A model generated the notes under the pieces. It saw nothing but the letters and a program-made list of their open reading frames with translations, made no database searches and was not told the origin of the DNA. A DNA stretch of 64,000 nt from assembly GCA_963840935.1 (NCBI GenBank), contig CAWJAS010000002.1:7333-71332 (forward strand), written 5' to 3'. Both the position numbers and the translations under genes were made by a program. Shown piece after piece: positions 21,892-24,133 of the stretch. The DNA is from Candidatus Magasanikiibacteriota bacterium (GTDB lineage Bacteria; Patescibacteriota; Patescibacteriia; Magasanikbacterales; GWA2-37-8). The stretch's first letter is position 1; each line of letters opens with the position of its first letter.

Positions 21892-22294
21892 TTGTCCGCC
21901 GAAAAATCCGTCCGTCCGAAAAGTTTTGGGGGCGAAGCCCAAGCAGGCGGGCAAAAAGGAAGGGGGTTGGGGGGAAGGAATTTTTGCCCGCCTGCTTCCG
22001 TTCCCGTTCCGTTTGAGCAAAGGAAAAGCGGAAGGGGGGTTTGGGGGGAATTCCGCTTTTCCTTTGCGAAATCAAATTGAGGCCAGCCCCGCCACCTGCC
22101 TGAATACTTGGAAGGCAGAACACCGCAGAAAAATACTCTTTTCATTAAAAGAAGAAAAAATCGGGCGCGCGCAAAATGAAAAGAGCAAAGAGTATTTTTC
22201 TGTGGTGTGGCGAGCTTGTCGAGCAGTGGCGGGGCTGGCTTCCTTATTGGGGGTTTTGCTCAAAAAAAGTTCGAACATCAATCAAAAAACACCG
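21892..22294. repeat. repeat R1, copy B (inverted relative to copy A)
   Basis: the reverse complement matches 17123-17524 with a few substitutions and one indel. Confidence 0.85.
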
Positions 22295-22425
22295 CCAATT
22301 TTCACTTTTTGTGAAATCGTAAGAAGCTGCCTCGGCGCAAAGCGCCTCGGCATGGTATTTTTCCGCTATTTTGAAGGCATTTTTGAAATCCAAAACCAAA
22401 GTGCGGTCGGCAATGCGGAAGTTCG
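22292..22425. repeat. repeat R2, copy A: inverted duplicate of the recombinase 3' end plus tRNA-Ser terminal CCGCCA
   Basis: 22292-22425 equals the reverse complement of 23910-24043 (~95%), including ccgcca that matches the tRNA 3' end; abuts R1 copy B. Confidence 0.85.
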
Positions 22426-22539
22426 CAGAGCGAAGCACTGGCAAAATGAAATTTTGCAAACCAATCTTTTTTCTTTCGCTTTCAGCGAAAGGTTGAGCGT
22501 ATTTTTCTTTGATTGCCCAAAAACTAATTTCAAAACAAT

Positions 22540-24097
22540 ATGGACAACATAAATTTACAAACCAAAAAGATTTTTCTCTATGCTCGTAAATCCACGGACG
22601 AACCAGAGCGACAAGTGCTTTCCATTGAGGCGCAAATGTTTGAATTGCGAGAATATGCCAAAAAAGAAAACCTGAATATCGTCCGTGAATTTGTGGAAAG
22701 CAAAACCGCCAAAGAGCCAGGGCGAGAAATTTTTAACGAAATGATCGCGAGCATAGAGAAAAATGAAGCCGAGGGAATTTTAGCGTGGCACCCTGACCGC
22801 TTGGCTCGTAATTCCATAGACGGCGGACGAATAATTTATCTTGGTAGATACTGGCAAAATAACCACGCTAAAATTTCCAACTTTTTGGTTTGATCCGACA
22901 CCGCAGGGAAAATTTATGTTGTCCATCGCTTTTGGGCAATCAAAATATTATGTGGATAATCTTTCGGAAAATATAAAGAGGGGTATTCGCCAGAAATTGC
23001 GAAATGGAATATGGCCCGCTTGGGCGCCACTTGGCTATGTAAACGACAAAAACGCTCGCTGTATCGCCGTGGACAAAGAAAAGGCAAAGTATATCAAGCG
23101 GGCTTTTGAAATGTATGCTACTGGCGAATACCCCCTCGCTCAAATCCGAAAGATTATCAATTCCTTGGGCTTGGTTGGCAAGAAAGGCAAAATGCTTTCC
23201 GTCTCAAATTATCAGTATATGCTGAAAAATAAAATCTATTACGGCATGATTGAATATAACGGCGAATTGTATGACGGAAAGCACGAACCGATTATCACAA
23301 AGAAACTTTTTGATTCCGTTCAAGAAGTGATGGCGAACAAGAGCAAACCGAAATCGCCAAAATTAAAACCTTACATTTTTAGAGGATTTTTCCGTTGCGG
23401 AGAGTGCGGTTGTTTCATTACCACCGAAACGCAAAAAGGTCATAACTATTTGCGATGCACCAAACGGAAAAATCCTTGTTCGCAAAGGTATGCGAGAGAG
23501 GACGCCATCACTTCTCAAATAAAAGAAGAAATCAAAAAAGTTTCTTTGTCTTCCGCTTGGGCAAACGCTTCAATCAATTTTTTCGAAAACGAAAAAATTA
23601 AAATTGCCCAAGCGGAAAGCTCTTTCGCCCAAAAAGCGAGAAATGAGCTTGTAGAGATAGAAACAAAACTTGATCGCTTGCTTGATTTACAACTGGACGG
23701 CAATTTGTCGCAAGCGGAATATACCGCCAAAAAGTACAAGCTCATTCTCGCTAAAAAAGATTTGGAAGAAAAAATCTCCGCTTTTGGGCGAAAGAGCAAT
23801 AATCGGTTCGAACTTGCCATTGCCTTTCTAAAAGACGCCAACCAAGCCGAAAAATACGCTCAACAAGAAAATCCCGAAAGGATTCGGGATTTTCTCAAAA
23901 AGATTGGTTCGAACTTCCGCATTGCCGACCGCACTTTGGTTTTGGATTTCAAAAATGCCTTCAAAATTGCGGAAAAATACCATGCCGAGGCGCTTTGCGC
24001 CGAGGCTGTTTCTTACGATTTCACAAAAAGTGAAAATTGGCGGAGAGGGAGGGATTCGAACCCTCGGTGCGACCTTGAGAGCCGCACAACACATTAG
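22540..24097 (+). CDS. large serine recombinase (resolvase + recombinase + zinc-ribbon domains) interrupted by a +1 frameshift near 22840; 3' end reads into the antisense tRNA-Ser
   Basis: N-terminal resolvase domain FLYARKSTDEPERQVLSIEAQ...WHPDRLARNSIDGGRIIYL; continuation VDTGKITTLKFPTFWFDPTPQGKFMLSIAFGQSKYYVDNLSENIKRG in frame +1; GFFRCGECGCFITTETQKGHNYLRC zinc ribbon. Confidence 0.8.
23910..24043. repeat. repeat R2, copy B (recombinase 3' end plus first 6 nt of tRNA-Ser)
   Basis: inverted match to 22292-22425. Confidence 0.85.
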
Positions 24098-24133
24098 CAG
24101 TGTGCCGCTTTCGACCAGCTCAGCCACCTCTCC
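24038..24133 (-). tRNA. tRNA-Ser (anticodon GCU), long variable arm, CCA encoded
   Basis: minus strand GGAGAGG-UG-GCU-GAGCUGGUCGAA-AGC-G-GCACA-CUGCUAA-UGUGU-variable arm GUGCG...CGCAC-GAGGG-UUCGAAU-CCCUC-CCUCUCC-G-CCA. Confidence 0.85.

Follow-up and report, generated by a model that had tools for sequence, protein, structure and literature searches.

A probable two-module serine recombinase island bracketed by inverted repeats at a tRNA-Ser gene in Patescibacteria

Here, we analysed a 64,000-nt stretch (the window) of contig CAWJAS010000002.1 of a Candidatus Magasanikiibacteriota bacterium, in which a broken gene for a large serine recombinase (LSR), hereafter rec, runs into the 3' end of a tRNA-Ser(GCU) gene. 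We found that positions 17122-24043 probably form a single 6.9-kb LSR-driven island of a family conserved in the Candidate Phyla Radiation (CPR, Patescibacteria), in which the inverted repeats are the standard build of an invertible element with two modules. The window island represents, in decayed form, a widespread variant of the LSR integrative island, with the inverted repeats as its defining conserved architecture.

Two pairs of inverted repeats, IR1 and IR2, meet a four-nucleotide core at three junctions, J1 to J3. The sites, arms and recombinase gene are the following:

17122 to 17125, plus strand: core GCGG of J1, putatively of attL type (host flank / P' arm), left end of the element
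17122 to 17524, plus strand: IR1 left arm ("a" arm, P' type), 403 nt, 97.8% match to 21892-22295
21892 to 22295, minus strand: IR1 right arm ("a" arm, inverted copy), called R1 copy B in an earlier, sequence-only reading
22292 to 22295, minus strand: core of J2, CCGC on the plus strand, a putative complete attP in inverted orientation
22292 to 22425, minus strand: IR2 left arm ("b" arm, P type), the recombinase 3' end repeated in inverted, non-coding form
22426 to 22539, plus strand: leader upstream of rec, holding a degenerate continuation of IR2
22540 to 24097, plus strand: large serine recombinase gene rec, frameshifted (Pfam Resolvase, Recombinase and Zn_ribbon_recom)
23910 to 24043, plus strand: IR2 right arm ("b" arm), the last 42-44 rec codons up to the core, including TGGCGG
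24038 to 24133, minus strand: tRNA-Ser(GCU), the target (ARAGORN; Rfam tRNA 60.2 bits)
24040 to 24043, plus strand: core GCGG of J3, putatively of attR type (P arm / tRNA), right end of the element

The 134-nt arms of IR2 (22292-22425 and 23910-24043) are 98% complementary, with three mismatches. The right arm consists of the final ~128 nt of the rec reading frame before the core followed by TGGCGG, which on the opposite strand is the CCGCCA 3' end of tRNA-Ser(GCU). The tRNA gene itself is intact, its last nucleotides, (G)CCA, being provided by the b arm of the element. The left arm of IR2 and the right arm of IR1 overlap by the 4 nt CCGC at 22292-22295. Chance would not come close to producing repeats of 134 and 403 nt that are 98% identical, and no further copy of IR1 or IR2 was found within the 64-kb window. 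The sequence-only reading had already described the inverted repeat that surrounds rec and includes the tRNA-Ser 3' end, its abutment on R1 copy B, a single frameshift of rec near 22840 and the extension of the reading frame for about 60 nt into the antisense tRNA, all of which our analysis bears out. Beyond that reading, J2 appears to be a complete inverted attP, IR1 and IR2 together make up one element (17122-24043), and a second gene, an endonuclease, is frameshifted as well.

The same build recurs in many genomes. We fetched 80 independent genome contigs from a species-level genome collection, selecting them by protein similarity only; their recombinases are 56-99% identical to that of the window (loci are cited below by their L numbers). 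Enough 3' flank was present at 64 loci, enough 5' flank at 59 and at least 4 kb of upstream sequence at 36, and IR2 was counted as present when its arms were at least 85% identical. By this measure a ~134-nt repeat, mostly at 99-100% identity, brackets rec in 53 of the 59 loci, and the rec open reading frame (ORF) overlaps a convergent tRNA gene in 57 of 64. A second, abutting repeat pair of the IR1 type (156-423 nt) brackets a helix-turn-helix (HTH) gene and cargo in 27 of 36, its right arm overlapping the left arm of IR2 by 4-19 nt. The targets are mostly the tRNA-Ser genes (CGA at 14 loci, GGA at 11, GCU at 15, UGA at 10), joined in distant branches by tRNA-Gln (2) and tRNA-Glu (5). In one 1.06-Mb contig, two such elements lie 5 kb apart, at tRNA-Ser(UGA) and tRNA-Ser(GCU). 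The nucleotide block that the window shares with the other loci extends for ~2.0-2.1 kb, starting within the right a arm and reaching the tRNA, and the window leader is 97-98% identical to those of L001 and L002. The hosts belong to Patescibacteria, with distant branches in bins labelled Elusimicrobia; recombinases that are 94-99% identical occur, always at tRNA-Ser, across bins labelled as many different CPR classes. A full-text literature search, whose coverage was incomplete, returned no description of this family, and these tRNA-Ser islands carrying restriction-modification (R-M) systems are apparently undescribed.

This recurrence bears on whether the locus could be an assembly artefact, which the sequence-only reading had listed as an option, or a single recent rearrangement private to the window genome. 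It is true that assemblers struggle with repeats: many homologous contigs are only 1.8-2.1 kb long, and same-strain contigs from two other runs (Logan contigs of ERR12035938 and ERR15459710, which carry an identical left-flank protein) end exactly at J1. Yet more than 50 independent assemblies, produced with different assemblers and by different groups, show the identical double inverted-repeat build, some of them on contigs of 100 kb to ~1 Mb, and the arms carry locus-specific sequence. We thus consider an artefact or private rearrangement barely credible. Rather, short-read assemblies in CPR metagenome bins systematically break off at tRNA-Ser loci because of the island repeats. The same recurrence settles part of another earlier proposal, that of an integrative element at tRNA-Ser that had undergone an inverted duplication: the LSR-driven element at tRNA-Ser stands, and the one-off duplication does not.

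All three junctions share the core GCGG. On the plus strand, J1 (17122) reads ...TTTAACAT / GCGG / TCGTTTTTGATTGATGTTCGAAC, that is host flank / core / a arm, and J3 (24040) reads ...GTGAAAATTG / GCGG / AGAGGGAGGGATTCGAACC, that is b arm / core / tRNA. The reverse complement of J2 (22292-5) reads ...GTGAAAATTG / GCGG / TGTTTTTTGATTGATGTTCGAAC, that is b arm / core / a arm. This arrangement suggests that J1 is attL-like and J3 attR-like, with J2 a complete attP lying inverted between them. Across ~135 loci the junctions obey one grammar, in which the core has a left-type half (b arm or host flank) before it and a right-type half (tRNA or a arm) after it, read on either strand; junctions of host flank with b', of a' with tRNA, of a' with a and of b with b' were never seen in these ~135 loci. 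In IR1 the half-site is the first ~27 nt, GCGGTCGTTTTTGATTGATGTTCGAAC, and the remainder is made of three long hairpins.

The spacing of one motif points to the type of each half-site. The a arms begin with the consensus GCGGTgtTTtTTG.a.gAtgTTCGAAC and the tRNA sides with GCGGAGaGgg.GGGATTCGAAC. TTCGAAC, the T-loop in the tRNA, follows GCGG by 16 nt in 29 distinct a arms and by 11 nt on 47 tRNA sides, and is thus exactly 5 nt nearer to the core on the tRNA side. In the LI integrase, the zinc-ribbon-domain motif likewise lies 5 bp closer to the centre in attB than in attP (PMC3783163). Under this rule the ends of the a and b arms would therefore be attP-type half-sites and the tRNA end an attB-type one, with TTCGAAC as the putative zinc-ribbon-domain motif. 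With the GG of GCGG taken as the centre, CGAA occupies +20 to +23 in the a arm as well as the b arm, and +15 to +18 in the tRNA. This symmetry argues that the non-palindromic GG, within the last acceptor/discriminator positions, is where the crossover takes place. At the far junction of L048 only CGG is shared, which is consistent with a GG crossover. A palindromic-core model, with crossover at CG and excision of single modules, was rejected because CGAA is symmetric only around a GG centre and because the junctions that this model predicts never occur. We also rejected the idea that the a arm is a degenerate tRNA copy: Rfam recovered the real tRNA alone at E <= 1 and alignment with tRNAs was uninformative. 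Outside J1 the flanks have no motif conserved across loci, and several are terminator-like hairpins, as expected of native tRNA trailers; the choice of target seems to depend on the tRNA half alone. The empty site is predicted to read AATTTTAACATGCGGAGAGGGAGGGATTCGAACC.

Longer arrays provide a test of how the segments move. At L007, L016, L023, L075, L087, L101, L104, L106 and L134, three to four bracketed segments abut one another in chains that always alternate between a-type and b-type. Such chains (as at L007, L023, L075 and L016), a rec module whose position varies within arrays and near-identical recombinases next to very different cargos would all be expected if each bracketed segment were an independent cassette, which circularises through a palindromic junction (b/core/b' or a'/core/a) and is inserted singly at the tRNA end, in the manner of integrons or SCC elements. 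However, the alternation is that of tandem whole elements, each a-type segment with its own HTH gene being followed by its own recombinase: a search for HTH genes found one in the additional a-type segments of L007, L023 and L075, and each b-type segment examined holds either an ORF of recombinase size or a recombinase hit, whose identity to the first is often no more than 49-54%. Moreover, the junctions predicted for single cassettes are absent from the ~135 loci, and the CGAA symmetry would place the crossover at a non-palindromic GG, forbidding excision between inverted sites. Independent cassettes are thus very unlikely, and the chains appear to be tandem whole elements rather than arrays of single-gene cassettes. 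One arrangement fits none of the models that we considered. At L035 (9667-11589), a rec module lies between two complete, inverted and 100% identical tRNA-Ser(GGA) genes. Next to these, the b arms belong to different variants, and there is no relation between the flanks on the outside.

J1 and J2, like J2 and J3, are inverted pairs that share the core. Since every module thus lies between two junctions in opposite orientation, flipping it recreates exactly the junction types that were there before, which leaves the two-module system closed under inversion. Flipped isomers do exist as differences between genomes. The position and strand of the HTH gene identify a flipped cargo module at L053 and L057, where this gene lies at the far arm and on the other strand. 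At L024 and L092 it is the rec module that is flipped: the tRNA upstream of rec abuts the left b arm and the ORF reads into the a arm. L005 and L092 have related hosts (flank genes 80% identical) and the same target, tRNA-Ser(GGA), with their rec modules in opposite orientations. In addition, a pattern scan of metagenome contigs for the order rec > b > core > a returned 50 loci, among which rec is co-directional with the HTH gene and cargo at L109, L115, L117, L122 and the second module of L093. Invertibility is thus real; its catalyst and purpose are what we infer. The earlier suggestion of a recombinase-mediated inversion switch can accordingly be kept as a capacity of the architecture, seen in the isomers of other genomes and metagenomes, while the recombinase of the window itself is broken.

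We propose that the element was inserted between the 3' end of tRNA-Ser and the native downstream flank of the tRNA. Integration would join attP (b/a) with attB (flank/tRNA) through a crossover that is probably at the GG of GCGG, and the integrated element would keep a second, complete attP in inverted orientation at J2. Its two modules, [a - cargo - HTH - a'] and [b' - leader - rec - b], would each carry long identical inverted arms that end exactly at the core, such that an exchange between neighbouring junctions could only invert a module and would always restore the same site types. Either the recombinase, at the cores, or RecA, across the arms, could carry out this exchange. In effect, the island would be a two-segment flip-flop, whose predominant isomer has rec convergent with the tRNA and the cargo divergent from rec. 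In the window copy, a 1-nt insertion would have broken rec and another frameshift the endonuclease, leaving an immobilised island. A bolder extension is that miniature flip-flop islands are at work CPR-wide, their reversibly invertible rec and cargo modules coupling or uncoupling recombinase and defence cargo from transcription that starts at the tRNA gene or on the HTH side. We hold this extension as a tentative possibility only. If it were true, the flip-flop design would be a self-limiting switch of expression and mobility, it would explain how near-identical recombinases (94-99% amino-acid identity) spread R-M systems to all four tRNA-Ser genes in many lineages of the CPR, and it would provide a natural LSR that performs reversible inversion without a recombination directionality factor (RDF).

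Several observations weigh against the proposed mechanism. Cargo is divergent from rec, and rec faces the tRNA, in ~30 of 34 modules, and pairs with related cargo share one orientation in 6 of 6 cases; inversion must therefore be infrequent, unless selection favours one state. Recombination of attP with attL or attR lies outside the canonical LSR repertoire (PMC3783163), so that an inversion catalysed by the recombinase would be atypical, and RecA acting on repeats of 134-400 nt could explain every isomer. The a arm is conserved across the family only over its first ~45-50 nt, and the long identity of arms within a locus could be mere gene conversion. What selective role the internal attP may have is conjecture. 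Terminal overlap indicative of circular forms was present in 0 of 135 loci, and no empty site for the window host was recovered: the left-flank protein is recorded solely in contigs that end at J1, and the right-flank protein, the island methylase and the recombinase fragment gave no record; nor was a related host present among the fetched loci. Because neither an excised circle nor an empty site was found, mobility as a unit is deduced from comparative data only. Recurrent contigs of 7.1-7.3 kb, which we considered as candidate circles, proved to be integrated copies.

Many of these points would be expected if the arms had no function at all, that is if an ancient inverted duplication of the attP region were kept by gene conversion, the internal attP being a relic, the isomers by-products of RecA, and integration and excision those of an ordinary LSR. 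Copy correction predicts just what the a arms show, since within one element they match over 156-423 nt at 97-100% identity even though they are not conserved between elements past ~50 nt, a pattern that fits concerted evolution. The variable length of IR1, the strong orientation bias and the LSR rules that forbid attP x attR (PMC3783163) point the same way. Nevertheless, the build persists at all three tRNA targets and while recombinase identity falls from 99% to 56%, IR2 has a constant inner boundary at ~134 nt, and the inner flanks carry mirror-position hairpins with different stems and an identical 16-mer, in a region where synonymous change is suppressed. Besides, a useless complete attP near other tRNA-Ser genes, which are potential attB sites, should be costly and lost. 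On balance, we regard functionless arms as doubtful, though a serious contender.

The inner flanks of IR2 deserve a closer look, as they suggest that the two-module build is maintained. Proceeding inward from either core, the 134-nt arm is followed by AACCAATCTTTTT, a hairpin and then GTTGAGCGTATTTTTC, which together form the degenerate continuation of IR2. In the coding arm the hairpin AGAAAATCCCGAA/TTCGGGATTTTCT at ~23866-23897 is perfect, with 13-14 bp; in the leader, the hairpin CTTTCGCT/AGCGAAAG at 22472-22492 occupies the mirror position with a different stem, and the 16-mer is retained at mirror positions. Among 48 homologues, synonymous divergence is lowest at rec codons 421-465 (~23801-23935), at 0.02-0.06 vs 0.1-0.38 elsewhere, and the coding hairpin coincides with this minimum. 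Seen from outside, the rec module thus begins with the same ~200 nt at either end: the half-site, the same tRNA 3' trailer and the hairpin with GTTGAGCGTATTTTTC. The rec module may therefore be built to work in either orientation, and the hairpin with GTTGAGCGTATTTTT may be a candidate end of tRNA-Ser read-through in both. At the inner edge of the right arm (23908-23931, minus strand), rec also contains a motif resembling the end of an a arm, GCGGTCGGCAATGCGGAAGTTCGAAC, which is kept in most homologues; we rejected it as a true a-arm end because its spacing is one base shorter than in real a arms.

The IR1 arms (17122-17524 and 21892-22295) hold three long hairpins, with a DNA fold z-score of -8.8, two of them with C-rich loops (TTCCCCCCAAACCCCCCTTCC). 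The same ~60-nt hairpin module is found at L018, L023, L025, L034, L053, L058 and L097, in either orientation (with a G-rich or C-rich loop), like a small palindromic repeat. A conserved RNA or single-stranded DNA structure of the a arm was considered and rejected, as the arms cannot be aligned across loci past ~50 nt and have no covarying pairs.

The repaired recombinase (22540-22842 joined to 22844-24097) is 518 aa long. The resolvase domain lies in the first frame (22540-22842, ending in GGRIIYL), and the recombinase and zinc-ribbon domains lie in the next (from 22844, VDTGKI...). PF00239, the N-terminal catalytic domain with the serine nucleophile, matches 22540-22839 (E 3.7e-16), and the recombinase and zinc-ribbon domains are recovered as PF07508 (E 1.3e-16) and PF13408 (E 1e-8). 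The motif YARKSTDE is invariant across 24 homologues, as are the zinc-ribbon cysteines CGECGC...C..C in the homologue alignment. An AlphaFold model, poor overall (mean predicted local distance difference test score, pLDDT, 62; predicted template-modelling score, pTM, 0.35), places two long helices after the ribbon strands (338-385 and 391-417, pLDDT ~78-87); in this low-confidence prediction they resemble the helical hairpin expected of the LSR coiled-coil motif. The enzyme has thousands of relatives, the closest 90-95% identical, and those that were aligned or translated are almost all uninterrupted. Beyond its own family it is isolated: the PDB match covers the catalytic domain only (E 1e-5), the nearest NCBIfam models, XisF, CcrB and CcrC, are all far below their cut-offs (68 vs 375, 63 bits vs 900 and 39.5 vs 900, respectively), and identity to any LSR in phage and plasmid collections is below 30%. 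IMG/VR contains no relatives; given this and the distance to phage and plasmid LSRs, a phage origin was rejected.

The 3' end of rec is peculiar. The downstream ORF (22841-24097) reaches 60 nt into the tRNA on the antisense strand; up to the core, rec lacks a stop codon, and it is the antisense tRNA that supplies one. In homologues, the commonest C-terminus, ..NWRRGRDSNPR.., is the antisense translation of the tRNA T-arm, and a minority one, ..NWRCFLDEVRTFFEENP.., is the translation of the a arm. Among the 120 closest protein clusters, the tail comes from antisense tRNA (..RGRDSNPR..) in ~50 and from the a arm (CFLDEVRTFFEENP..) in ~20; intact recombinases with an a-arm tail read through a J2-type junction. 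The rec ORF is therefore always open across the crossover point, and whatever adjoins provides the stop codon. As a consequence of this layout, the recombinase C-terminus may differ between the integrated and free forms, a tail switch linked to integration and excision.

As for the frameshift, the window rec has exactly one extra base, in TAT-C-TTG-GTA (near 22840-22843), relative to all 89 homologous blastn hits among the fetched loci. It would be possible to argue that the recombinase is nonetheless functional, through programmed recoding or because the insertion is a sequencing error: the extra base falls on a synonymous polymorphic site (TAC/TAT before TTG/CTC), where a mixed-allele consensus could create an insertion. 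Against this, 72 of 75 full-length homologues are open at that point and none shares the insertion, the site has no slippery heptamer, and a second island gene is also frameshifted, vs host ORFs of up to 2758 aa that are intact. A functional recombinase is thus improbable.

IR1 encloses five minus-strand ORFs that correspond to four genes, one of them split:

17526 to 18690, minus strand: type II restriction endonuclease, split by a frameshift (ORFs 18073-18690 and 17526-18140)
18687 to 19700, minus strand: N6/N4 DNA methyltransferase, intact (Pfam PF01555, E 1.3e-45; PADLOC MTase_II, E 1.2e-70)
19703 to 21529, minus strand: superfamily 2 (SF2) helicase (ResIII/DEAD/Helicase_C), cargo
21534 to 21734, minus strand: XRE-type HTH protein of 66 aa, divergent from rec (Pfam HTH_3, E 1.8e-14)

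The halves of the endonuclease match positions 3-188 and 186-382 of the 384 positions of PADLOC model PDLC03461 (E 4e-72 and 5e-73). Since the endonuclease is frameshifted and the adjacent methyltransferase intact, the latter would be an orphan, and the simplest reading is that the window copy is a decaying, immobilised island with an orphan methyltransferase. Homologues of the HTH gene lie 550-870 nt upstream of the rec start, on the opposite strand, in ~36 loci, essentially every locus with upstream sequence; this near-universal presence therefore makes it a backbone gene and not merely an R-M controller. The cargo proper is variable, and recombinases are near-identical between loci whose cargos differ greatly. 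In 34 a-type modules with 79 ORFs, it consists mainly of components of Type I, II, IIG and III R-M systems, with a few cases of an AbiEii-like ATPase, histidyl-tRNA synthetase (HisRS), Hsp70 and transporters.

Around the island, a host glutaredoxin-like gene (16540-17121, minus strand) abuts J1 with its ATG at 17119-17121, which is likely the true start; before the insertion, this gene would have begun immediately past the tRNA. The ORF caller extends it to 17241 (16540-17241, minus strand), 40 codons into the a arm. Another called ORF, of 208 aa (21926-22552, plus strand), covers the right a arm, the left b arm and the leader, and similar ORFs are annotated in other assemblies. It is probably spurious, because the underlying arms are not conserved between elements. 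Elsewhere in the window, a tRNA-Ile with anticodon UAU (60937-61010) is an uncommon bacterial isoacceptor, and an ORF at 25801-26400 (minus strand) has a long acidic repeat of the DTDADTDSDTD type, with a local GC content of up to 0.56.

CPR account for a large share of bacterial diversity, are mostly uncultured and have few described mobile elements. In this context, the family looks like a main vehicle that moves R-M systems among them. It also constitutes a testable system for the regulation of LSRs and for reversibility without a directionality factor, with relevance to the LSRs that are used in genome engineering.

How does the island compare with known systems? To our knowledge, an internal inverted attP, two modules with long arms and an ORF that runs across the crossover lie outside the textbook picture of serine integrases. 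With the large serine integrases (A118/LI, phiC31, Bxb1, SPbeta SprA), the island shares the resolvase, recombinase and zinc-ribbon domains and perhaps, in the low-confidence model, a long helical hairpin after the ribbon, as well as short att sites, a small core and a motif 5 bp nearer to the centre in the bacterial half-site. Unlike these integrases, its rec ORF runs across the crossover point, it inserts at the very 3' end of a tRNA and lacks a conserved second half-site in the target, and the integrated form retains a putative complete inverted attP and long inverted arms. It also has no evident RDF candidate except the small HTH protein, whose 66 aa make it the sole candidate accessory protein.

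Islands of the SCCmec type (staphylococcal cassette chromosome mec; CcrAB/CcrC) and excision elements of the XisF type are likewise LSR-driven, use the 3' end of a conserved gene and form tandem arrays at one site. However, the island has one recombinase rather than a Ccr pair, which scores far below the CcrB and CcrC cut-offs, and its inverted repeats bracket modules, whereas SCC elements are bounded by direct repeats. It is also unlike integron-like cassette arrays, since its arrays are tandem whole elements (an a plus a b module) and single-cassette junctions are absent.

Among inversion systems, the textbook comparisons are the Salmonella H segment (Hin/Gin type), where the recombinase gene likewise lies inside its own invertible segment between inverted sites, and the R64 shufflon, where adjacent segments are likewise separated by sites of alternating orientation and isomers are observed. 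Hin and Gin are small serine invertases (about 190 aa, with a C-terminal HTH) that work with Fis and an enhancer, and the shufflon uses the tyrosine recombinase Rci; their sites are ~19-26 bp and they are not integrative elements. In contrast, the island enzyme is an LSR of ~500 aa and its arms are 134-400 nt long. If excised, the island would resemble the yeast 2-micron circle (FLP/FRT), a similar small circle in which two long identical inverted repeats, each with the recombination site, separate two unique segments, one encoding the recombinase, and which exists in isomeric forms. FLP is a tyrosine recombinase and the 2-micron an autonomous plasmid whose repeats serve copy-number amplification; unlike it, the island yielded neither a circle nor a replication gene. 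Finally, Broussard and colleagues are said to have reported in 2013 that mycobacteriophage attP lies inside the repressor gene, whose C-terminus switches upon integration. There too the crossover is inside an ORF, as in the island, whose tails would be ..NWR/RGRDSNPR.. in the integrated form vs ..NWR/CFLIDVRTFFEQNPQ in the free form. Unlike this tyrosine system, however, the island is a serine system in which the crossover falls in the recombinase's own ORF.

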